Source of the DNA: an uncultured Elusimicrobia bacterium
GTDB lineage: Bacteria; Elusimicrobiota; Elusimicrobia; F11
Assembly: GCA_964499015.1 (NCBI GenBank)
Contig: CAZCJA010000068.1
Coordinates: forward strand, 1-13,613
DNA length: 13,613 nt
Direction of reading: 5' to 3'
The position numbers were made by a program, and so were the translations under genes. The number at the start of each line of letters is the position of its first letter. Within the stretch, counting starts at the first letter, position 1. Positions 1 to 13,209 of the stretch are shown here, piece after piece. The notes beneath the pieces are model-generated. The model had not been told where the DNA came from, did not search any database, and was given only the letters and a program-made list of their open reading frames with translations.

Positions 1-329
1 TCGGCGACATCATCACCGACTTGGGCGCCATGATCCAGGGCGGCATGGGCATCGCCGCGGGCGGCAACTTGAACCCCGAAGGTGTTTCCATGTTCGAGCC
101 GATCGGCGGTTCCGCTCCCAAATACACGGGCCGCAACATGATCAATCCTCTCGCCGCGATCTGCGCGGGCGGGCTGATGATGGACAACATCGGCCAGGCC
201 GAAGCGGCCGCGTCCATTGAGAACGCGGTGTTTAAAGCGTTGTCGTCGGGAAAAATCGCTTCGCTGGCCGCAGGCAAGATGGGGCTGACCACCACCGAAG
301 TCGGCGATTACATCGCCTCCCTCATTTAA
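1..329 (+). CDS. C-terminal ~108 aa of an isocitrate/isopropylmalate (beta-decarboxylating) dehydrogenase family enzyme; the 5' end lies outside the window
   Basis: The frame is open from the window edge (codons phased from nt 3) to TAA at 327-329. The translation GDIITDLGAMIQGG...NLNPEG.SMFEPIGGSAPKYTGRNMINPLAAI matches the conserved GDILSD and EP.HGSAPD..GK..ANP blocks of the LeuB/Icd/tartrate dehydrogenase family. The usual His is Gly here. Confidence 0.8.
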   Translation, partial: GDIITDLGAMIQGGMGIAAGGNLNPEGVSMFEPIGGSAPKYTGRNMINPLAAICAGGLMMDNIGQAEAAASIENAVFKALSSGKIASLAAGKMGLTTTEVGDYIASLI

Positions 330-1397: not shown

Positions 1398-2357
1398 ATG
1401 TCGAAGAAGTGGGACGTAAAAACATATCTATTTTTAAGCGCGTTTTTCCTCTTGGCCGCGCTTCCTCAATCCGTTTCCGCCTGGAGCTGGAATTCCGCGG
1501 ACAATGTTTTGCCCTCTCTCCGTGAGGAACTCGATAAAGAAATTGCCGCTTATCGCCTGCAAGTCGGCAATGGTATGAGCATGCAGGACCGCATCATTGC
1601 TTTGGACCGCCTCATCGGCAATTACCAGCCGCTCGGACTCAACATGGTGGAGCTGGAAACCGAACGCTCGCGACTGATGCTGCAGGAAAAACAACGCCAG
1701 CTCCGCTCCGCCGAACTGCAGACCGAAGCCACCCAGCTTTACGATCGCGGCGTCGCCGAATATCGCGAGGGCCAATACCGCGTTTCAATGGAAACCTTTC
1801 AAGAAGCTGAACGTCTTTTGCCGGACGACACCGGAATCAAGGAGCTGCGGCGCAAATTGCAGGGCATAGCGCCGATCACGGAATCGGAAACCGGTTCGAC
1901 CGGTGATTCCAAGCTGATCCGTTTATCCGTCACCCGCTATTTGGAAAACGACCCGAAGCGTTCGATGAACGCGCTCTTGTACGCCGGGGAGCGCTTCAAA
2001 GAGCGTCGTGAAATCGAACGTCTGCAGCAACTGTTGGAATCGAACCATCCCGAAGTCGAAGCGCCGCGTTTGGCCACCGGCATTAATCTGGTGGACCATA
2101 AACTCCAGCTTTCCCTGGAAGCGATTTACGAAGGCCGCTACTTAACCGCCATTTCCGAATGCACCGACGTTCTTGATCTCGAACCCAACAACGTGCTCGC
2201 GCTGACCCGTCTCGGTTCGGCGTATTTCGCCATGAACGAACAGAACAAGGCCCAGCAGGTTTGGACCAAAGCCCTGCAGCTCGATCCGAACAACGAAGTG
2301 TTGAGAAAGTTTTTGTATGGCCGCAAAGGAGCCTCCCGTGTTGAAAAGAACCCTTAA
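1398..2357 (+). CDS. Secreted (periplasmic) tetratricopeptide-repeat protein, 319 aa
   Basis: Starts at ATG 1398 (MSKKWDVKTYLFLSAFFLLAALPQSVSA|WSW), a classic Sec signal peptide with a VSA cleavage site. TPR-like helical repeats include YDRGVAEYREGQYRVSMETFQEAERLLPDD and LEAIYEGRYLTAISECTDVLDLEPNNVLALTRLGSAYFAMNEQNKAQQVWTKALQLDPNN. Its 3' end overlaps the next gene. Confidence 0.8.
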   Translation: MSKKWDVKTYLFLSAFFLLAALPQSVSAWSWNSADNVLPSLREELDKEIAAYRLQVGNGMSMQDRIIALDRLIGNYQPLGLNMVELETERSRLMLQEKQRQLRSAELQTEATQLYDRGVAEYREGQYRVSMETFQEAERLLPDDTGIKELRRKLQGIAPITESETGSTGDSKLIRLSVTRYLENDPKRSMNALLYAGERFKERREIERLQQLLESNHPEVEAPRLATGINLVDHKLQLSLEAIYEGRYLTAISECTDVLDLEPNNVLALTRLGSAYFAMNEQNKAQQVWTKALQLDPNNEVLRKFLYGRKGASRVEKNP

Positions 2358-4050
2358 AAGAACCGCGCTCCTCTTGCTGCTCGCCGTCGTCGGCGCAGCC
2401 GTGCTTTTCGCTGAGTCCTCCTGGGACAGTGAGCGGCTTAACCTTGAAACCAATATTCAAAAACGCGTCGAAGAGGCGTTGTCCAAAATAATCCCGGCGA
2501 ACCAGTTTGTGTTGGTCGTGAAAATCGAGCCGCTCGGACAGCAAATTGACGCCAAGGGAAACCCGGTCGAATCCGGCGATGGCTACTTCCTGCCCGGCGT
2601 TCCGGAGCGCCAGCGTTTCGATAACAATCTGAGCGCCAAAGACTTGGCCAGCGCGCTCAAGCCCGACTCGGCGCTTTTCAAGCGCTTCATTCGCCAGATT
2701 TCCGTCACTCTCGTCATCGATCAGGATATCTCCGAAGAAACCGTCGACAAAGTGCGCGAGCTCACCCGTCAAATGGTGGGCTTGGACCCGCAGCGCGGCG
2801 ATACCATCAACGTGCAGCGCACGGTGTTTCAGAAAGCGCCCATCGCGATCATCGACAATTCGAGCATCGCCCAACTGCAGAACAGCCTGAAAAATTACTG
2901 GGTTGTGATTTTATTGACGCTGATTCTTTTCTGCGTGGGCGTGTTCTTCCTTTTTATGTTCGGTCCGCTGCGTGGCTTTTTAAACCGCTTCGTCCAAGTG
3001 CTGCCGACGCTCAAGCCGCAGGAGAGCGAAGGCCAGTATCCGCGTATGGGCGGCGGCGAGATGCCGTACATGCCGTTCTTCCCCGGTTACGGAGCGCTTC
3101 CCGGCCCTCAGGCTGGCGGCAACGGTTCAAATTTCTCCGGTATGCTGCAGGTGGAAAACCCGAACAAAGTATCCCTGCCGTTCAGCTTCATCCGCGAAGA
3201 CAATTTGGGAAATCTCTCCATTCTTCTGTCGCGTGAAAACCCGGAGAAAGCCGCGGTGGTCCTCGGCTATTTGCCGTCCGAATGGATCAGCCGCGTGCTG
3301 ATGCGCATCGAGCCGGCGATGCAGACGGAAATCGCCCAACATTTGGCCACAACGCGACAGCTTTTGCCGGAACAGGTTGAAGATATTGAACAGGATTTGA
3401 AGCGCCGCTTGGATTATATGGTCGGCGGCCCCGATCGTTTGATTTCTATTTATGAATCGCTGGATTTGGACGCACAGAAGCGCATGGTGGACAGCTTAAA
3501 AGAGTCGCGTCCGGAAGTGGCCGATGAAATTCGTAAGCGCTCCCTTTTGTTCGAGGACTTGGAAAAATTGGACGCCGCCGGTCTTAAAACCATACTGCGC
3601 GAAGTGGATCTGCAAACGCTGGTGATGAGCCTGCACGGCACATCCAGCGCGTTCACCAAGAAGATTATGGATAACGTCTCGCCGGGCAAGGCCGAGATTA
3701 TTAAGGAAGAGCTCGAGACGCAGAAAGTGTTCCCGGGTACGCTGGTTATGGAAGCGCAGCGCAAAGTGGCGCTCATCGCGCGCCGTCTGCGTAAAGAAGG
3801 GCATATCAGCGTGCCGCTGGGCGCAACGGACGCGGCGCCGAGCGTCCGCTACGGCAGCGGTGGATCATTGCGCGACAGTCTGAAGCTGCCGCCCGCCCTT
3901 AAAGGAAACGCGCCGGAGACGGTCGTCGAAGGCGTCACCACCAAAAAGAATGAGCCGGGCAAAAATATCGAAGATCGCATTAAGAAATTTATGAAGCGCG
4001 GGGACAACGAAGAGCGCTATCCCCAAGACGACAATCAAACGGGAGCCTGA
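2338..4050 (+). CDS. Membrane-anchored FliF(C-terminal ring motif)/FliG(M+C domain) fusion-like protein, about 570 aa
   Basis: GTG at 2338 lies 6 nt after AAAGGAG (2325-2331); the in-frame ATG at 2317 is an alternative start. Residue numbers follow the 577-aa track ORF. TM1 is about aa 16-32. The periplasmic segment (aa 33-193) contains ISVTLVIDQDISEETVDKVRELTRQMVGLDPQRGDTINV, resembling the FliF block RLSVAVVV...IEDLTREAMGFSDKRGDTLNV. TM2 is YWVVILLTLILFCVGVFFLFMF, followed by a P/G/aromatic linker. From PFSFIRE (nt ~3172) to about 3816 there is a clear FliG_M + FliG_C: ENPEKAAVVLGYL (EHPQ motif region), MVGG, EIRKRSLLFEDLEKLD, ILREVD and RKVALIARRLRKEGHI. Confidence 0.8.
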   Translation: MLKRTLKRTALLLLLAVVGAAVLFAESSWDSERLNLETNIQKRVEEALSKIIPANQFVLVVKIEPLGQQIDAKGNPVESGDGYFLPGVPERQRFDNNLSAKDLASALKPDSALFKRFIRQISVTLVIDQDISEETVDKVRELTRQMVGLDPQRGDTINVQRTVFQKAPIAIIDNSSIAQLQNSLKNYWVVILLTLILFCVGVFFLFMFGPLRGFLNRFVQVLPTLKPQESEGQYPRMGGGEMPYMPFFPGYGALPGPQAGGNGSNFSGMLQVENPNKVSLPFSFIREDNLGNLSILLSRENPEKAAVVLGYLPSEWISRVLMRIEPAMQTEIAQHLATTRQLLPEQVEDIEQDLKRRLDYMVGGPDRLISIYESLDLDAQKRMVDSLKESRPEVADEIRKRSLLFEDLEKLDAAGLKTILREVDLQTLVMSLHGTSSAFTKKIMDNVSPGKAEIIKEELETQKVFPGTLVMEAQRKVALIARRLRKEGHISVPLGATDAAPSVRYGSGGSLRDSLKLPPALKGNAPETVVEGVTTKKNEPGKNIEDRIKKFMKRGDNEERYPQDDNQTGA

Positions 4051-4053
4051 TAA

Positions 4054-4842
4054 ATGGATTTCATGACATTGTTTGGTTGGCTGATCGGGCTCGGATCCAT
4101 CGGCTGGGTTTTGGCGGATGGGGAAATTTTTCGCTTCTTTTACAATACGCATGCGTTGGTTCTCGTGTTCGGCGGCACCCTCGGTTCCACACTGATCACC
4201 TATCCATGGTCGATCTTAAAACGGCTGCCGCACGCGATGCTCCTATTTATGTTCCCGGGCCGGCGCGAATCCTCCGAAACCGTGATGCAAAGCGTGCTGG
4301 CTCTGTCAGGCCGCGCGCGCCGCTCCGGCATGGAGAGCGTCGAAATCGACATGAACGGCGTGCAGAACCGTTTCCTCGCTAATGGGCTGCGCATGATCGC
4401 CGATGGATTGCCCGCCAATTTGATCCGCGCCAATCTGGAGAAAGAAATCCATTTTATCCGCCTACGTCACGCGGAAGTGGCGAATGTGTTTCGCAACATG
4501 GCTACGTACGCACCGATCTTCGGCCTGCTCGGAACGCTGGTCGGCGTCGTGCAAGTGCTGTTGAACCTGTCGGATCCGCGCACGATGGGCATGCACATGG
4601 CCGTCGCCATGACCGCGACCTTTTACGGCATCTTTGGCGCCAATTTTTTGTTTTTGCCCATCGCCGGCAAACTTCACGCGTATTCGGAACAGGAACTGTT
4701 TCTAAAAGAAGTGATGATCGAAGGGGTGCTGTCCATCCAACGGCAAGAAGTGCCGGCCATTCTTACGCGCCGTTTGCAGGCCTACTTGAATGAAGGCGGC
4801 AAAGCCTTGTCCACAGCGAGCGCGCGCGAAGCAAAAGCATGA
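4054..4842 (+). CDS. motA: MotA/PomA-family stator channel subunit, 262 aa
   Basis: ATG 4054 follows GGGAG (4041-4045). The N-terminus MDFMTLFGWLIGLGSIG...LVLVFGGTLGSTLITYP is MotA-like. Both conserved TM3/TM4 proline blocks are present: YAPIFGLLGTLVGVVQ and TATFYGIFGANFLFLPIAGKL. The C-terminal IEGVLSIQ...P block is MotA-like. A large cytoplasmic loop sits between TM2 and TM3. Confidence 0.9.
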   Translation: MDFMTLFGWLIGLGSIGWVLADGEIFRFFYNTHALVLVFGGTLGSTLITYPWSILKRLPHAMLLFMFPGRRESSETVMQSVLALSGRARRSGMESVEIDMNGVQNRFLANGLRMIADGLPANLIRANLEKEIHFIRLRHAEVANVFRNMATYAPIFGLLGTLVGVVQVLLNLSDPRTMGMHMAVAMTATFYGIFGANFLFLPIAGKLHAYSEQELFLKEVMIEGVLSIQRQEVPAILTRRLQAYLNEGGKALSTASAREAKA

Positions 4843-5501
4843 TCCACCGTCTTTTCCGCCGCAAGTCCGACGACAGCCGCGCCGAAGGCATCTGGCTCAC
4901 TGTTTATTCCGACCTGATGACCAATTTGGTGCTCGTTTTCTTGGCCATGTACGGCCTGGTCACGATGGGCAACAAAGCCATTGAAGAAGCGGCCGTTTCC
5001 ATGAAATCGCCCGGTTCGTCGATCAAGTCCATGGAAGATCAAACCCTTACTCTCGAAAGCGTCACGCTGTTGTTGCGCCAGGAATTCAAAGACAACAGCG
5101 AGGTGGCAATTCTCGAAGAAACGGGCGTGACGCGCATTCAATTGGGCGAAACCATTCTTTTCGATTCCGGCCGCGCGGAGCTAAAGCCATCGGCCAAGCC
5201 CATGCTGGAAAAAGCGGCGACGTTTCTTGTCCTGCTTCCCTATACCATCGTGGTTGAAGGCCACACCGACGACCGTCCTATTAGAGGCGGCGTTTATCGC
5301 GACAATTGGGAGCTGTCGTTGGGGCGTTCGATGTCGGTGGTCGATCTGTTGTCCAAACAAGGCGGGATTCCCGCCAAACAATTGGCGGCCGCGGCCTATG
5401 GCTTCAATCATCCGCGCGCCTCGAACATGACGCCCGACGGCCGCGCATTGAACCGCCGCGTTGAAATCGCGCTCTTCCGCGACGTCCCGTTTACATTATG
5501 A
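4839..5501 (+). CDS. motB: MotB-like stator subunit 1 (N-terminal TM with channel Asp plus OmpA-like peptidoglycan-binding domain), 220 aa
   Basis: Its ATG overlaps the motA stop (ATGA at 4839-4842). WLTVYSDLMTNLVLVFLAMYGLV carries the invariant Asp (GAC 4911-4913). The OmpA-like C-terminus reads GHTDDRPI...NWELSLGRSMSVVDLL...NRRVEIAL. Confidence 0.9.
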   Translation: MIHRLFRRKSDDSRAEGIWLTVYSDLMTNLVLVFLAMYGLVTMGNKAIEEAAVSMKSPGSSIKSMEDQTLTLESVTLLLRQEFKDNSEVAILEETGVTRIQLGETILFDSGRAELKPSAKPMLEKAATFLVLLPYTIVVEGHTDDRPIRGGVYRDNWELSLGRSMSVVDLLSKQGGIPAKQLAAAAYGFNHPRASNMTPDGRALNRRVEIALFRDVPFTL

Positions 5502-6259
5502 GCGACGAAGAGAATCTCGAAGAAGGCGGCGAGGGCGAAGCGGAAGAAATTTCGCTTCCGGAACTCGAAGAGCTTCCGGAGACCGACGCCGCTCAAGGGC
5601 AGGGCGCCGAAGAGGAAGAGGAGAAAAGTTGGTTCGGCGCCAACCGCCGCAAGCGCGCGCCGGTCGGCATGCACCGCGACGCAACGAACTTATGGCTGAT
5701 TTCGTATTCCGATTTTATGACGATTCTTTTCATTTTCTTCCTGGTCATGTATGGTTACGCGGTTCTTGAAAAGCAGCAGCGCATGTCGCAAGGCGCGACG
5801 ATTTCATACGACGCTTTCGCCAAGTTGATGGACCGATTTGAGGGCGTGGTGGGCAGCGCCAATGTGGAGATCACGACGGATTCCAACAAGACCACGGTGC
5901 AAATGAAAGACAGCGTGCTCTTTGCCAGTGGAAGCTCCGAGCTGACGCCAAACGCAAAAACGACTCTGGCGGAACTCTCCAAGTCCCTTAAACTGGTCGC
6001 AGGCGACGTGATTGTGGAAGGCCACACGGACAACGTGCCGATTTTTGGGGGCCGCTACAAGTCAAACTGGGAACTCTCGGCGGCTCGCGCTTTCTCCGTT
6101 ATTGAAGAGTTGACCGCCAACGGCGTGCCGGCGAAACGGCTGGCGGCCTGGGGATTCGGCGAGAACCGGCCGATCAGCAGCAACGTAGAAGAAACGGGCC
6201 GGCGCAACAATCGGCGCATTGAAGTGATAATCTTTAACGACAGAACGCACAACACCTAA
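5498..6259 (+). CDS. motB: MotB-like stator subunit 2 with a highly acidic N-terminal extension, 253 aa
   Basis: Its ATG overlaps the previous stop (ATGA at 5498-5501). The first ~43 aa are Glu/Asp-rich (MSDEENLEEGGEGEAEEISLPELEELPETD...EEEEEK). Then comes LWLISYSDFMTILFIFFLVMYGYAV with the conserved Asp (GAT 5711-5713). The OmpA-like C-terminus reads GHTDNVPI...NWELSAARAFSVIEEL...NRRIEVII. Confidence 0.9.
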   Translation: MSDEENLEEGGEGEAEEISLPELEELPETDAAQGQGAEEEEEKSWFGANRRKRAPVGMHRDATNLWLISYSDFMTILFIFFLVMYGYAVLEKQQRMSQGATISYDAFAKLMDRFEGVVGSANVEITTDSNKTTVQMKDSVLFASGSSELTPNAKTTLAELSKSLKLVAGDVIVEGHTDNVPIFGGRYKSNWELSAARAFSVIEELTANGVPAKRLAAWGFGENRPISSNVEETGRRNNRRIEVIIFNDRTHNT

Positions 6260-6268
6260 GGGGAACGA

Positions 6269-7285
6269 ATGTCCGGAGAACGCATACTGGTGATCGACGA
6301 CGACGAGCAGGTGGCGTCGTATGTTCGTTTGGCCTTTACGCTGAACGGCTATCAGGTTGAATGGATCAACGACGGGCGCAAGGCGTTTGATAAAGCCCAA
6401 CAGATGATTCCAGACGCCATTATTCTCGACCTTAAACTTCCCGGCACCAACGGTTTCCGTATTTGTGAACAACTTCGCTCCGAGCCGCGCACCCGCGCCA
6501 TCCCTATTATTGTCGTCAGCGGCAGCTGGAAAAACGCCCAGGACCGCATTCGTTCCATCGAAGTGGGCGCCGACGATTTTCTCACCAAACCGTTCGACGC
6601 GCAGGAGTTGATCGCGCGCATTAAGCGCATGCTCCAGCGCAAAAAAGTTGACATGGGGCACAACCCGCTGACGGGCTTGCCCGGCAACTTGGCGATCGAA
6701 GAAGAGTCGCGCCGCCGACTGGCAACGCGATCCAACCTCGCGTTCGCCTACATCGACCTGGACAATTTTAAGGCGTACAACGACGTCTACGGCATAAAGC
6801 AGGGTGATAAAGTCATCCGTCTTCTGGCCGACCTTTTGTTGGAGTCGGGCAAGCGGTGGGGAAATCCCAGCGACTTTATCGGCCACGTCGGCGGCGACGA
6901 CTTTGTGATGATGACCTCGCCGGACAAAGCCGAACAGATTTTTTCCTGGATCGCGCAGCGCTTCGACGAACGCATCAAAGCGTATTATTCGGAAGCCGAT
7001 TTGCGCGCGGGCTGCATCACCGCCAAAGACCGCCAGGGCAACATTAAGAAATTCAATTTCGTTTCCGTTTCCATCGTTTATCTCACTGATAAAAATATGG
7101 AAACCAATCAGTATGCGGTGTTAATCCAAACCCTCACCGAAATGAAGGGCTACGTGAAACACAACATGGACCGCACCAAAGGGGGAAGCGTCGTGTTTCA
7201 AGATCGCCGCGGCCCCGAAGCCGAAAACCCGCGCGTCAAGCCGGGCACCGCTCCCGCCAAGCCCGATACCACTCCCCTTAAATAG
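6269..7285 (+). CDS. Response regulator: CheY-like receiver plus GGDEF-family (diguanylate cyclase-like) domain with a non-canonical GGDDF site, 338 aa
   Basis: SD AAGGGGA lies upstream of ATG 6269. The REC domain has DDD (aa 10-12), phospho-acceptor D54 (IILDLKLPG) and TKPF. The GGDEF-like domain has NPLTGLPGN, FAYIDLDNFKAYNDVYGIKQGD and GHVGGDDF (GGDDF = nt 6890-6904). Confidence 0.9.
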   Translation: MSGERILVIDDDEQVASYVRLAFTLNGYQVEWINDGRKAFDKAQQMIPDAIILDLKLPGTNGFRICEQLRSEPRTRAIPIIVVSGSWKNAQDRIRSIEVGADDFLTKPFDAQELIARIKRMLQRKKVDMGHNPLTGLPGNLAIEEESRRRLATRSNLAFAYIDLDNFKAYNDVYGIKQGDKVIRLLADLLLESGKRWGNPSDFIGHVGGDDFVMMTSPDKAEQIFSWIAQRFDERIKAYYSEADLRAGCITAKDRQGNIKKFNFVSVSIVYLTDKNMETNQYAVLIQTLTEMKGYVKHNMDRTKGGSVVFQDRRGPEAENPRVKPGTAPAKPDTTPLK

Positions 7286-7363: not shown

Positions 7364-7412
7364 TGCGCCACCTCAATTGACCTTCGTTAAATCTAATTGC
7401 TGGTTTTGGTTA

Positions 7413-7443
7413 GACCCCGGGACGTTTCGGGGTCTTTTGTTTG
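7413..7443 (+). terminator. Rho-independent terminator-like hairpin with U-tract
   Basis: GACCCCG (7413-7419), an 8-nt loop, CGGGGTC (7428-7434), then TTTTGTTTG (7435-7443). It lies 128 nt after the REC-GGDEF stop and 15 nt before tRNA-Gly. Confidence 0.6.
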
Positions 7444-7547: not shown

Positions 7548-7620
7548 GCTGGGGTAGCTCAGCTGGTAGAGCACGTCATTGGTAATGACGAGGTCGTCGG
7601 TTCAATCCCGATCCCCAGCT
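7548..7620 (+). tRNA. tRNA-Thr (anticodon GGU)
   Basis: Manual cloverleaf, 73 nt. Acceptor GCTGGGG/CCCCAGC; D arm GCTC-AGCTGGTA-GAGC; anticodon arm CGTCA-TTGGTAA-TGACG; T arm GTCGG-TTCAATC-CCGAT. Confidence 0.93.
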
Positions 7621-11027: not shown

Positions 11028-11558
11028 ATGTCCGAGACGCCAACTCCTCCAGTCGCTCCAGTCGCCGCCGCGTCTCCTTCCGTTCCGAATCCTGAACTTT
11101 CGCGCCGTTCTTTCCTCCTTTATGGATGGGGAGCGTTTATGGCGTTTCTCGCGGCGTCCGCGGGCGCTACGCTCCGTTTTTTCCTGCCGAACGTTCTCTA
11201 CGAACCGTCCCAAAAATTCCGCGCCGGAATTGCCCGCGATTATCCGCTTGGCGTGACAATTGATAAAGCGAACCGCGTATGGGTTGTCCGCAACGATCGC
11301 GGTTTGTACGCAATGTGGGCGCGCTGCACGCACTTGGGCTGCACGCCGAACTGGTTCCCGGCCGAAACTCGCTTTCGCTGCCCGTGCCACGGCTCCAACT
11401 TTACCGCTGCTGGCGATGTGATCGCCGGCCCTGCGCCAAAGCCTCTGTGGCGCGTGCAGGTCACACAAACTCCAGCGGGAGAGCTTGTCATTGATAAAGC
11501 CGTTATGGAGAATAGACCCGGACCGCGCGACAAAGAGCCGTTCTTTATCACGATTTAA
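11028..11558 (+). CDS. Rieske [2Fe-2S] subunit of a cytochrome bc/b6f-type complex, 176 aa, with a Tat-type signal anchor
   Basis: Cluster-binding boxes CTHLGC and CPCHGS are present. The N-terminal LSRRSFLLYGWGAFMAFLAASAGA has a twin-arginine motif and a hydrophobic anchor. A cytochrome b gene is adjacent. Confidence 0.9.
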   Translation: MSETPTPPVAPVAAASPSVPNPELSRRSFLLYGWGAFMAFLAASAGATLRFFLPNVLYEPSQKFRAGIARDYPLGVTIDKANRVWVVRNDRGLYAMWARCTHLGCTPNWFPAETRFRCPCHGSNFTAAGDVIAGPAPKPLWRVQVTQTPAGELVIDKAVMENRPGPRDKEPFFITI

Positions 11559-11565
11559 TTAACAC

Positions 11566-13209
11566 ATGCAATTACCCAAAATAAATCTCGAGAAGATTAA
11601 AGAAGACGTCATCAACAGCCAAGTGTGGCGTTCCATGTTCCGTGGCGGAACCTGGAAAGACACCTCCCGCGATCGCGCGCAGCACATCCTCGGCAACGTC
11701 TGGCTCCATTTGCATCCCGCCCGCGTCCGCTCACGCGCCGTCAAACCCAATTACACCTGGGGCTTGGGCGGTTTGTCGTTCCTGTTGTTCCTCGTTTTGA
11801 CCGTGACGGGCATCGTGCTCATGTTCTACTACCGCCCGTCGATCGATCTCGCCTATCGCGACATGAAAGATTTGGAATTCGTGGTTTCTTTCGGAAAATT
11901 CATGCGCAACATGCACCGCTGGTCGGCGCACGCAATGGTGCTCGTCGTTATTTTGCACATGGTGCGCGTGTTTCTCACCGGCTCGTACAAAACCCCGCGC
12001 GAATTCAACTGGGGCGTTGGTGTCGTTCTTCTCGTTCTAACTCTTTTCCTTTCTTTTACCGGCTATTTGCTGCCGTGGGACCAACTGGCAATTTGGGCGG
12101 TCACCGTCGGCACCAACATGGCGAGTGCCACTCCATTTCTTGGGGCGGAAGGCCCGTTCTCCTCATTATTGGGCGTCGGTCTTAAGAACGACGCGCGTTT
12201 TGGTTTGCTCGGCGGCACCTCCGTCGGCGCCAACACGCTGGTCCGTTTCTACGTTTTGCATTGCATCGCGGTCCCGTTCATCACGGGCGTGCTGATGATC
12301 GTGCACTTCTGGCGTATCCGCAAAGACGGTTTCTCCGCGGCCGCGCTGCCGAACGAAGGCCCGAACCAGAAGATCGAAGTATGGCCTAATTTGGTCGTGC
12401 GCGAATATATCGGTGCGATCCTGATGCTCATTTTCCTCGTGGCATGGTCGATTTTGCAGAACGCGCCGCTCGAAGGCATCGCCGACCCCAACGTCACGCC
12501 CAACCCGTCCAAGGCGCCGTGGTATTTCTTGGGCTTGCAGGAACTGCTCGTCTATTTTGATCCGTGGATCGCGGGCGTGCTGCTGCCCGGTATTATCGTC
12601 GGTGGTTTGATCGCGATTCCGTATCTCGAACCCGATCCAAATCACGGCGTCGGTTACTACTCGGTCAAAGACCGCCCATTCGCTTCCGCCATTTTCTTGT
12701 TTGGTATCGCCGCGTGGTTTGTGCTTATCATTGTCGGCGTTTTTTTCCGTGGGCCCAACTGGGCCTGGTACTGGCCGTGGGAAAACTGGGCGTATCACAA
12801 GCCGCCGGATCCACCCACGTTTACGCTTCCGCTCGCATTGGGCGGCGCGCTCATCACTCTTTATTTTGCCGTCGGCATGGTGTTGCCGCGCTTGATCACC
12901 AAAATCATCGACATTAAAGCGGCCATCTGGCGGACGTTGATTATTTCAATCGGCGTGTCCGCGATTGTCGGCGCATTGCCGATGTTCAGCTTCGTGCAGG
13001 GCATATGGGCGGGGTTCGGCCTGTTCCTGTATGTGGTGCTCGGGTTCTTCCTGCCGCAAAAATATTTGAAAGGCATTTCGATCATCCGTTACACGGTTTG
13101 CATGCTGCTGCTCCTTTTGATGATCAGTGTATTCCTGAAAATGGCGCTGCGTCTTGGATTTAACGTGAAGTATATCGTCTCGATTCCACAAGTGAGTTTG
13201 AATATCTAA
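11566..13209 (+). CDS. Cytochrome b (fused b6-like N-terminal plus subunit-IV-like part, with extra C-terminal TM helices), 547 aa
   Basis: Helix B has [15 protein letters not shown] (H-X13-H) and helix D has [16 protein letters not shown] (H-X14-H, b6-like spacing). The Qo-loop motif region reads [13 protein letters not shown] count about 11 hydrophobic helices by eye. Confidence 0.92.

Follow-up and report, generated by a model that had tools for sequence, protein, structure and literature searches.

A natural fusion of a FliF-type ring-building motif with FliG domains, encoded beside MotA and MotB in Elusimicrobiota: a candidate non-flagellar rotor–stator module

The DNA considered in this study, referred to below as the window, is a whole contig of 13,613 nucleotides (13.6 kb; GC content ~55%) from an uncultured Elusimicrobia bacterium (GenBank assembly GCA_964499015.1, contig CAZCJA010000068.1), carrying a run of genes on the forward strand (Table 1). 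One of them encodes in a single polypeptide a ring-building motif (RBM) of the kind found in FliF, a transmembrane (TM) segment, and the middle and C-terminal domains of FliG (FliG_M and FliG_C). I will refer to its product as the fusion. The gene stands between that of an exported tetratricopeptide repeat (TPR) protein and those of one MotA and two MotB stator subunits, and after these comes a gene for a protein with a receiver and a GGDEF-like domain. I will argue that the fusion would be a single-polypeptide miniature rotor within a self-contained, non-flagellar rotor–stator module, a reading to which I assign a probability of about 0.6.

The TPR gene runs at its 3' end into the start of the fusion gene, the stop codon of the latter lies 3 nt ahead of the ATG of motA, and 4-nt overlaps of the ATGA type join motA to motB1 and motB1 to motB2. 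Because the six genes are packed this tightly, with starts overlapping stops and a terminator-like hairpin after the last, they make up one translationally coupled operon.

Table 1. Features of the window. Residues are those of the 577-aa open reading frame of the fusion, counted from ATG 2317.
Feature	Nucleotides	Strand	Residues (aa)	Evidence or remark
leuB, 3' end	21-329			
Alcohol-dehydrogenase-like gene	326-1399	–		
TPR protein, operon gene 1	1398-2357	+		N-terminal signal peptide MSKKWDVKTYLFLSAFFLLAALPQSVSA; Pfam TPR_2/TPR_1/TPR_19 at aa 245-313
Shine-Dalgarno sequence AAGGAG	2326-2331	+		6 nt upstream of GTG 2338
RBM3(FliF)-TM-FliG_M-FliG_C fusion gene	2338 (GTG) or 2317 (ATG) to 4050	+		
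N-terminal hydrophobic segment	2362-2412	+	16-32	Hydropathy; AF2 helix 9-31
Periplasmic RBM3	2422-2829	+	36-171	alpha1 36-56, beta1 64-72, insertion 73-124, beta2 125-135, alpha2 140-154, beta3 163-169
LPGVP motif	2590-2604	+	92-96	Within the ~50-aa insertion
TM2, then conserved juxtamembrane helix FGPLRGFLNRFVQVLPTL	2896-2964	+	194-216	Hydropathy; AF2 helices 182-215, 218-232
Disordered Pro/Gly/aromatic tether	3010-3177	+	232-287	Ends in conserved FSGxLQVENPNK
FliG middle domain	3178-3432	+	288-372	PFSFIRE to Gly-Gly linker G370-G371
FliG C-terminal domain	3433-3816	+	373-500	Pfam FliG_C; 1LKV and 8UCS_H matches
Torque helix	3679-3717	+	455-467	S-P-G457-K458-A-E-I-I-K-E464-E465-L-E
Charged C-terminal tail	3817-4047	+	501-577	Alignment
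MotA/PomA flagellar-type stator A subunit	4054-4842	+		Pfam MotA_ExbB, PDB MotA matches
MotB1	4839-5501	+		TM Asp (YSDLMT), plug, OmpA-like domain; PF13677 + PF00691
MotB2	5498-6259	+		Acidic N-terminal extension, TM Asp (YSDFMT), plug, OmpA-like domain; PF13677 + PF00691
Receiver + GGDEF-like protein, last operon gene	6269-7285	+		
Terminator-like hairpin, then T-run	7412-7435	+		Ends the six-gene operon before tRNA-Gly
tRNA-Gly, tRNA-Thr, tuf, tRNA-Trp, nusG, rplK, rplA, Rieske protein, cytochrome b				Downstream of the hairpin

The reading frame of the fusion is uninterrupted over 2317-4050, giving 577 aa from the ATG or 570 aa from the GTG; an identical database protein, P0001, is recorded at 577 aa. 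The GTG is probably the true start, since a Shine-Dalgarno sequence precedes it at 6-nt spacing and orthologues (in the related loci L001, L013 and L014) are called at the homologous GTG. AAGGA is conserved together with the GTG in L001, L014 and L003, L013 keeps the GTG, and the in-frame ATG falls where the TPR gene encodes its conserved C-terminus (…KFLYG). This favors the start adopted in a preliminary description of the window, which had been drawn from its letters and translations.

A word-indexed search returned 46 full-length orthologues of the fusion, 49-81% identical to it and 547-609 aa long. Conservation is given below for 47 orthologues, except where I refer to the distant members of the family, a set of 95 sequences that are 18-30% identical to the window protein.

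The two-TM topology around a periplasmic domain, proposed at the outset, agrees with a Kyte-Doolittle scan, in which two hydrophobic segments, and no more, stand out (aa 12-37 and 189-222), and with the helices of an AlphaFold2 (AF2) model built from the 47-sequence alignment. The N-terminal segment ends …AVLFA|ESSWD and may be either TM1 or a cleavable signal peptide; the alignment of the family shows that a small residue is kept at -1. TM2 and the juxtamembrane helix contain a series of residues (F213, F215, G216, P217, R219, F221 and L222) that are invariant in the orthologue alignment.

The C-terminal half of the fusion matches Pfam FliG_M (PF14841) at aa 300-367 and FliG_C (PF01706) at aa 392-498 (E 8e-25), both above cut-off, and matches the FliG_MC structure of Thermotoga maritima (1LKV) at E 4e-34, the FliG part being 30-35% identical to T. 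maritima FliG. In the alignment with 1LKV, ENPE stands opposite EHPQ, VGGPD opposite the Gly-Gly linker (G370-G371 being invariant), LLFED opposite the hinge MFVFED, and the torque helix SPGKAEIIKEELE opposite SKRAAALLKDELE. PFSFIRE is aligned to PFSFVRD, so that FliG_M begins exactly where the preliminary description had placed it.

The same description held that FliG_N was gone and a covalent tether had taken its place, and this account stands. The sole match to FliG_N (PF14842), at aa 308-364, is sub-threshold and a cross-match onto FliG_M, and the stretch from TM2 to PFSF offers no room for the domain: it has 72 residues, of which about 50 are predicted to be disordered (predicted local distance difference test, pLDDT, below 50 for aa 232-281 in the AF2 model). 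The change of EHPQ to ENPE (aa 307-310, nt 3235-3246), first noticed in the window, holds throughout the family. The orthologues have E-[TSN]-P-E, and in 94 distant members the EHPQ columns are variable, and the residues most often seen in the two columns concerned include neither His nor Gln.

The torque helix had been said to carry a basic residue and an acidic pair at the positions of R281 and D288/D289 in Escherichia coli FliG. The E. coli numbering used here presumes a C-terminal sequence that reproduces positions 281, 288, 289 and 297 and the length of 331. The acidic pair was placed correctly, the two columns being occupied by E464 (Glu in 35 orthologues, Gln in 11 and Asp in 1) and by the invariant E465. 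The basic residue was not: the R281 column holds an invariant glycine, G457, and the HMMER alignment puts an invariant lysine, K458, one residue later. The K264 column is H440 in the window and Arg or Lys in most orthologues, and the R297 column is P473.

The most conserved stretch is TTRQLLPEQVEDIEQDLKRRLDY (aa 345-367, 3349-3417), which covers the last part of FliG_M together with the inter-domain helix and in which nearly all positions are invariant. It is conserved more strongly than the torque helix, which suggests an interface with a partner or between subunits.

Turning to the periplasmic domain, Pfam YscJ_FliF_C (PF08345) matches aa 125-171 over profile positions 97-147 of 147 (29.3 bits against a cut-off of 23.8), and a profile of the domain matches Salmonella FliF (6SCN; E 2.7e-5) over residues 240-262 and again over 404-438, collinear pieces on either side of the beta-collar. 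The RBM3 core is modeled by AF2 at a pLDDT of 88-95 and the insertion at low confidence; when the domain model was given to Foldseek, the top 18 matches were FliF RBM3 or S-ring structures (E 6e-6 to 3e-4, TM-score ~0.52-0.56). An RBM of the SctJ/YscJ type was considered and rejected, since injectisome SctJ structures appear only at E >1e-2, as against 6e-6 for FliF RBM3. The three methods agree that the N-terminal half resembles the RBM3 of FliF specifically. In the preliminary description one retained block was likened to the last periplasmic motif of FliF; the likeness to FliF is upheld, but more than that motif is kept, and the domain is a complete FliF-type RBM3 with a shortened collar.

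RBM1 and RBM2 are missing, as judged by the lack of any match to YscJ_FliF (PF01514) and by the ~150 periplasmic residues, which form one RBM according to AF2. The beta-collar, ~110 aa in FliF, is cut to an insertion of ~50 aa that is predicted to be disordered. Within it lies LPGVP, the most conserved element of the wider family (P93 and G94 invariant, L92 and P96 above 90% in the 95 distant members). The variant P0167 is less reduced, and an alignment through it sets LPGVP against G-I-PGALSNQP, the conserved motif at the collar tip of Vibrio FliF.

Over its whole length the fusion scores below the curated cut-offs of both parent families: 28 against 129.75 bits for fliF (TIGR00206; aa 137-237 on model positions 400-497) and 106.7 against 226.7 bits for fliG (TIGR00207; aa 289-503 on 112-332). 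Since RBM1/2, the full collar, FliG_N and EHPQ are lacking as well, the protein should be annotated as neither FliF nor FliG.

The best structural matches of the adjacent MotA are flagellar stators, 9LU9 (1.5e-46) and 8UCS_C (2.8e-42), the latter being MotA of C. sporogenes, deposited together with a FliG_C chain. The NCBIfam models for MotA, MotP and PomA score 163-181 bits, all below their cut-offs (181 against 340). Because these equivalog cut-offs are not reached, the stator genes are regarded as divergent, and MotA is a divergent member of the flagellar class of MotA, PomA and MotP. In the window each MotB retains the TM aspartate, the plug and the OmpA-like domain, and the stator looks functional.

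Two MotB paralogues follow one MotA in nearly all related loci. In distant subfamilies MotB2 has Asn or Thr at the site of the TM aspartate (PYGNLM, PYSTLM) and MotB1 keeps the Asp (L018, 12259-13618; L027, 8244-9577), which suggests a MotB1/MotB2 heterodimer with a single ion-binding aspartate. The cytoplasmic N-terminal extension of MotB2 is ~45 residues long and very acidic (MSDEENLEEGGEGEAEEISLPELEELPETD…EEEEEK; 5498-5640 in the window), and the MotB2 orthologues of L001, L014 and L012 have acidic extensions too, of different sequence.

The cytoplasmic loop of MotA reads RARRSGMESVE. With G92 set in register with G93 of E. coli MotA, R89 and E97 fall at R90 and E98 of the E. coli sequence, which was checked against its known residue numbering only. 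In the flagellar motor, MotA R90 pairs with FliG D288/D289 and MotA E98 with FliG R281 (PMC12505986). Pairing of charges was counted over the 37 loci that hold both a fusion and a MotA. A basic residue at FliG 457/458 and an acidic one at MotA 97 are found together in 15 loci and are both missing in 22, with no mixed cases; the basic/acidic state is shared by the window's clade and, as a separate case, L021. In other subfamilies the basic residue of FliG tends to stand at 461, one helical turn further, and the acid of MotA at 91 (R/K and D/E together in 17 loci, neither in 16, mixed in 4). An acidic residue at FliG 465 goes with a basic one at MotA 89/90 in 36 loci, and the remaining locus has neither. 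Conservation of the torque-helix charges among orthologues, and their covariation with the MotA loop, had both been put forward as checks on the preliminary description; both are found, the 457/458 and 97 states agreeing in 37 of 37 loci drawn from few lineages. The pattern would look like an electrostatic interface that has been maintained but repositioned.

About 25 loci (~25) extend far enough to be assessed, and with a single exception they hold the fusion, MotA and one or two MotBs, plus a TPR gene. The window's clade is syntenic down to 51% identity (leuB … TPR-fusion-MotA-MotB-MotB-RR_GGDEF … tuf, RR_GGDEF being the receiver-GGDEF-like gene), with the same cassette order in L001, L013, L014 and L012. 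Synteny in this clade alone could be explained by inheritance. The cassette is found as well in deeply divergent loci with unrelated flanks, as fusion-MotA-MotB-MotB-TPR in L018, L022 and L024, TPR-x-fusion-MotA-MotB-MotB in L023, TPR-fusion-MotA-MotB in L021, and PorV-like/TPR-HK::fusion-x-MotA-MotB in L020. A metagenome scan of one subfamily (A8) gave 23 loci: 11 have the complete order fusion-MotA-MotB-MotB-TPR, another 5 are complete but for the 5' end of the fusion gene, and the others are cut by contig ends. The TPR gene flanks the cassette in all loci long enough except L020, where the neighbor is faintly TPR. No flagellar genes were found in the flanks fetched for ~35 loci (6-10 kb where the contig allows), and there is no fliM or fliN in the window or adjoining the fusion in any related locus, so that the absence of fliM first noted in the window extends to every locus examined.

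All named orthologues come from Elusimicrobia or Elusimicrobiota, and a genome scan found 10 loci, all in metagenome-assembled genomes of Elusimicrobiota. An exhaustive HMMER search with a profile of the periplasmic domain against 1.84 billion cluster representatives (E <=1e-3) extended the family well beyond these: 309 representatives match, and among the best 150 of them 145 are newly found, of which 103 have an RBM3-like domain, FliG_M and FliG_C in that order, the remainder being mostly fragments. Counted as clusters at 50% identity, no fewer than 103 have the fused architecture. The 95-sequence alignment (A4), used as query in a protein search, brought back canonical FliGs and members of the window's own clade and nothing else. 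The named distant members belong to Elusimicrobiota, including Endomicrobiales, with the exception of RLE71917.1 (in the P0095/P0224 cluster), labeled 'Thermoprotei archaeon' and lying on a 4.9-kb contig; since all other named members are Elusimicrobiota, the label is probably a binning error. A search of the literature found no paper describing the RBM3-FliG_MC architecture or its cassette, a remark by Uzun et al., taken up below, being the sole prior notice, and a 2025 paper on MotAB evolution makes no mention of Elusimicrobiota or of FliF-FliG fusions of this sort. The RBM3-FliG_MC protein with its dedicated MotA/MotB/MotB/TPR cassette is widespread and apparently undescribed.

Several variants were met in the course of these searches. 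P0193 has a full-length YscJ_FliF_C match, and P0087 has extra C-terminal TPRs. P0167 (L020, 10001-12511, 836 aa) has a histidine kinase (HisKA + HATPase_c) N-terminal to RBM3-FliG_MC, and P0162 joins a kinase to an RBM3/collar domain with no detectable FliG domains. P0172 (610 aa, on a 740-kb contig) consists of an N-terminal RBM3 with a YscJ_FliF_C match of full collar length, a long charged coiled-coil-like region and a C-terminal TM segment; it has no FliG domains and is another stand-alone use of the FliF RBM3. P0059 (L015/L016, 2759-4672) is a true flagellar FliF (PF01514 + PF08345, RBM1-3) fused to FliG_M only, and is encoded in a flagellar operon, directly after flgC and fliE.

The cassette occurs in one organism on whose flagellar genes there is a report. 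Contig L012, from strain DUR003 (Ca. Obscuribacterium magneticum), carries the fusion (cut by the contig end), MotA, MotB, MotB, the receiver-GGDEF-like gene and tuf. DUR003, DUR002 and most free-living Elusimicrobiota are reported to be without flagellar structural genes, and the same genomes to hold 'numerous homologues' of motAB and fliG, whose role was called unclear (Uzun et al., bioRxiv 10.1101/2022.07.08.499144). Because RBM1/2, the collar, FliG_N and EHPQ are lost and DUR003 is reported to lack flagellar structural genes, a non-flagellar role is the most likely one, and I regard it as quite probable.

The module may work as follows. A signal peptide or TM1 would export one RBM3 whose collar is reduced to the LPGVP loop, and TM2 with the disordered tether would link it to FliG_M and FliG_C. 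This covalent link would replace the usual non-covalent binding of FliG_N by the FliF C-terminus. The homology of RBM3 and the covariation of charges give indirect support to ring assembly and rotation: RBM3 would oligomerize into an S-ring-like periplasmic ring, setting up a 1:1 ring of FliG_MC beneath the membrane in which FliG_M and FliG_C of neighboring subunits stack as in the C-ring. Peptidoglycan-anchored stators of the MotA5B2 type, possibly with MotB1/MotB2 heterodimers, would be positioned around it by the TPR protein. Ion flow would drive them against the torque helix through contacts of MotA R89/R90 with FliG E464/E465 and of MotA E97 with FliG K458. With RBM1/RBM2, FliG_N and EHPQ gone there would be no export gate, rod or FliM/FliN switch, and because of this the assembly is better seen as an autonomous module than as a flagellar basal body. 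Without FliM and FliN it would have no CheY-type switch, and rotation may be unidirectional. The output would probably be taken off in the periplasm, where the candidates are the LPGVP loop, at the place where FliF holds the rod, and the TPR protein. In some subfamilies it may be passed on to outer-membrane or giant surface proteins, and conserved neighbors of the cassette there add further candidates: a giant surface protein, a CARDB/CarboxypepD_reg protein, a FecR-like protein and a protein of ~635 aa described below.

Several points weigh against a rotor–stator module of this kind. Three of the five classical FliG charges are out of register, the K264, R281 and R297 columns being filled by H440, G457 and P473. 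Few independent lineages underlie the covariation with MotA, so that the nominal P values of Fisher tests would not be meaningful and only the counts are given. The model of the periplasmic domain is moderate (mean pLDDT 67), its insertion unmodeled; one related locus, L019, has no MotAB beside the fusion; and the check for flagellar genes in the window's own genome is limited to the 13.6-kb contig.

An unlikely alternative is that nothing rotates, and that the FliG-like oligomer is a signaling platform which docks MotAB-like channels and reports or controls membrane energization or envelope stress through the receiver-GGDEF-like protein, a second messenger being the output or the input, with no mechanical work. 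The conserved receiver-GGDEF-like gene at the end of the operon in the window's clade fits such a platform, as do the histidine kinase of P0167 and the response regulators that adjoin the cassette in L019 and L022. Effectors of cyclic di-GMP (YcgR) moreover act on FliG and MotA in flagellar motors. Yet most subfamilies lack the receiver-GGDEF gene, unlike the fusion, MotA, MotB and TPR genes, which are universal, the GGDDF motif of its product makes activity doubtful, and torque charge pairs that are conserved and covary are hard to explain without force generation.

It is improbable that the fusion is the MS-ring/C-ring part of a real flagellum, strongly reduced or unrecognized, whose other parts are encoded elsewhere. 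Every domain is flagellar, the FliG part shows the identity with T. maritima FliG given above, the stator is of the MotA/PomA type, complete sets of flagellar genes are present in a few Elusimicrobiota, and engineered FliF-FliG fusions function in real flagellar motors (PDB 8Z4D). However, the parts missing or altered include RBM1/RBM2, which seat the export gate, and the beta-collar, which holds the rod, besides FliG_N and EHPQ; none of the ~35 loci has a flagellar neighbor, while the true flagellar fusion P0059 does; and DUR003 has the cassette despite its reported lack of flagellar structural genes.

That the gene is an artefact of frameshift or assembly, or a decaying relic of a lost flagellum, is hardly credible: the contig is assembled from a metagenome and the low-complexity linker lies exactly between the halves, but the same fused frame across more than 100 clusters at 50% identity excludes the frameshift joining two genes about which the preliminary description had cautioned, that frame recurs in independent NCBI, JGI, ENA and Logan assemblies in sequences 18-30% identical, both halves and the juxtamembrane segment hold invariant motifs, and the cassette is tightly syntenic and translationally coupled.

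A bolder form of the rotor–stator reading, which I offer tentatively and would not bet on, is that many Elusimicrobiota, including the magnetotactic Ca. Obscuribacterium magneticum, possess an autonomous minimal rotary motor composed of an RBM3-FliG_MC ring, MotA/MotB1/MotB2 and a TPR scaffold and lacking export apparatus, rod, hook, filament and FliM/FliN switch, its torque serving a non-flagellar use such as moving or secreting giant surface proteins by way of an outer-membrane partner, in a new gliding or trans-envelope machine. Such a motor might be a stripped-down descendant of the flagellar motor or an analogue of a pre-flagellar rotor–stator core.

The ~635-aa protein has a signal peptide and no Pfam family, and is encoded in L018 (4827-6728), L023 (6268-8172) and L024 (14715-16646), the copies being homologous at E 1e-79 and 4e-54. 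Its last residue is aromatic, like that of outer-membrane beta-barrels. In L018 and L024 it stands with a ~495-aa CARDB/CarboxypepD_reg protein and a FecR-like protein directly upstream of the fusion. Several related loci hold giant surface, PorV-like, CHU_C, Por_Secre_tail or CARDB proteins. They raised the idea of a connection with type IX secretion or gliding, which was not adopted, since such proteins are likely common in these genomes and the window and A8 clades have unrelated flanks (housekeeping genes, multihaem cytochromes).

Comparison with known systems brings out what is shared and what is particular. With flagellar FliF and FliG (Salmonella, E. coli, Thermotoga) the fusion shares the RBM3 fold with its end motif RGDT(L/I)xV, the two flanking hydrophobic segments, the PFSF start, the Gly-Gly linker, FliG_C and the acidic torque pair, and the stator shares with MotAB the R90/E98 equivalents and the TM aspartate of MotB. 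It differs from them in being one polypeptide without RBM1/RBM2 and FliG_N, in its collar of ~50 aa, in E-[TSN]-P-E, in the glycine at the R281 column with lysine at +1, and in having no FliM/FliN, rod or export genes nearby.

The nearest precedent is the FliF-FliG fusion of Chlamydiaceae, ~330 aa in length, which consists of an SctJ-like RBM2, an unassigned RBM and FliG_M only, with no FliG_C or torque helix (Bergeron 2016, PeerJ, PMC4768692); no MotAB genes adjoin it, and its presumed interaction is with the injectisome (PMC4768692). Both are natural combinations of a shortened FliF (two TM segments, fewer RBMs) with a FliG domain, and the chlamydial hosts are without flagella; the window protein, on the other hand, is RBM3 + FliG_M + FliG_C beside stators. 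Orthology of the two was rejected, since there is no match to the chlamydial NCBIfam model NF004606 at E<=0.01 and the architectures differ; that model does match two truncated members of the family weakly, over about 45 residues. Covalent FliF-FliG engineered in Salmonella and in Vibrio alginolyticus forms MS-rings (PDB 8Z4D/8Z4G, PMC11481574). The FliG part of the window protein matches the 8Z4D chain at E 1.7e-13, and by Foldseek its periplasmic model matches the S-ring of 8Z4D/8Z4G, but the engineered proteins join full-length FliF to full-length FliG inside a complete flagellum.

SpoIIIAG of the sporulation channel and SctJ/PrgK/EscJ of the injectisome have the same alpha-beta-beta-alpha-beta ring-building fold but carry no FliG domains and are not paired with MotAB. 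The site of the insertion is the same as in SpoIIIAG and in FliF RBM3, and family members give weak matches to the SpoIIIAG model TIGR02830. GldLM/PorLM of gliding and type IX secretion, AglRQS, ExbBD, TolQR and ZorAB are MotAB-like ion-driven units outside the flagellum; they are without a FliG-type rotor ring, and their B-like subunit or its partner carries the output. Here, unlike in the 5:2 non-flagellar motors, a flagellar-type MotA would face a FliG_C torque helix.

PflA/PflB of Campylobacter and Helicobacter and FlcA of spirochaetes are periplasmic TPR scaffolds of flagellar stators. By analogy, the exported TPR protein, encoded with MotB-anchored stators and presumably acting on them, is a plausible scaffold of stator or rotor. 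Its strict linkage to the cassette is the basis for this role; it has a weak match to NCBIfam FlcA_CTERM (E 0.0024), short of a significant sequence relationship.

If correct, the rotor–stator reading would make this the smallest known setting for torque between FliG and MotA, with one rotor polypeptide, a fixed 1:1 ratio of FliF to FliG, and no switch or export gate. Flagellar torque is normally studied within a machine of ~25 proteins, and a natural five-gene module would offer a minimal test system for cryo-electron microscopy and single-molecule work. From one subfamily to another, charges on the MotA loop and on the FliG torque helix shift in pairs, which amounts to a natural experiment on their electrostatic interface. 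Use of a FliG-type rotor outside the flagellum would bear on the origin of the flagellar motor, or on its dismantling and reuse, and the module would be a candidate for movement or envelope power in free-living Elusimicrobiota reported to be without flagella, magnetotactic ones included. Were rotation and a non-flagellar output demonstrated, it would constitute a new class of bacterial rotary machine.

Two features are restricted to the window's clade: the charged tail of the fusion and the receiver-GGDEF-like gene. The tail contains clade-specific islands (R511-Y-G, KLPP, DIxxRIxxFM and ERYP) and a single predicted helix (aa 550-560, AF2), and a hidden Markov model of it found no match among 145 distant representatives. 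It is a possible docking site for the receiver-GGDEF-like regulator. The latter has GGDDF, invariant in four orthologues, in place of GG[DE]EF (as aligned to GGEEF of PleD), NPSD in place of the RxxD inhibitory I-site, and a GGDEF Pfam match that spans only positions 3-103 of the 161 in the profile. The protein is perhaps a cyclase without activity, or an effector that binds nucleotides.

Minor observations concern the flanks. After rplK-rplA come a Rieske protein and a 547-aa cytochrome b (11028-13209), not the usual rplJ-rplL-rpoB; L014 does not have this order, and L001 and L013 do. The mechanically determined start of the alcohol-dehydrogenase-like gene, at 1399 on the reverse strand, collides with the TPR ATG at 1398, and that open reading frame is probably too long. 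The same is probably true of the open reading frame of tuf, whose TTG start at 7579 overlaps tRNA-Thr (7548-7620).

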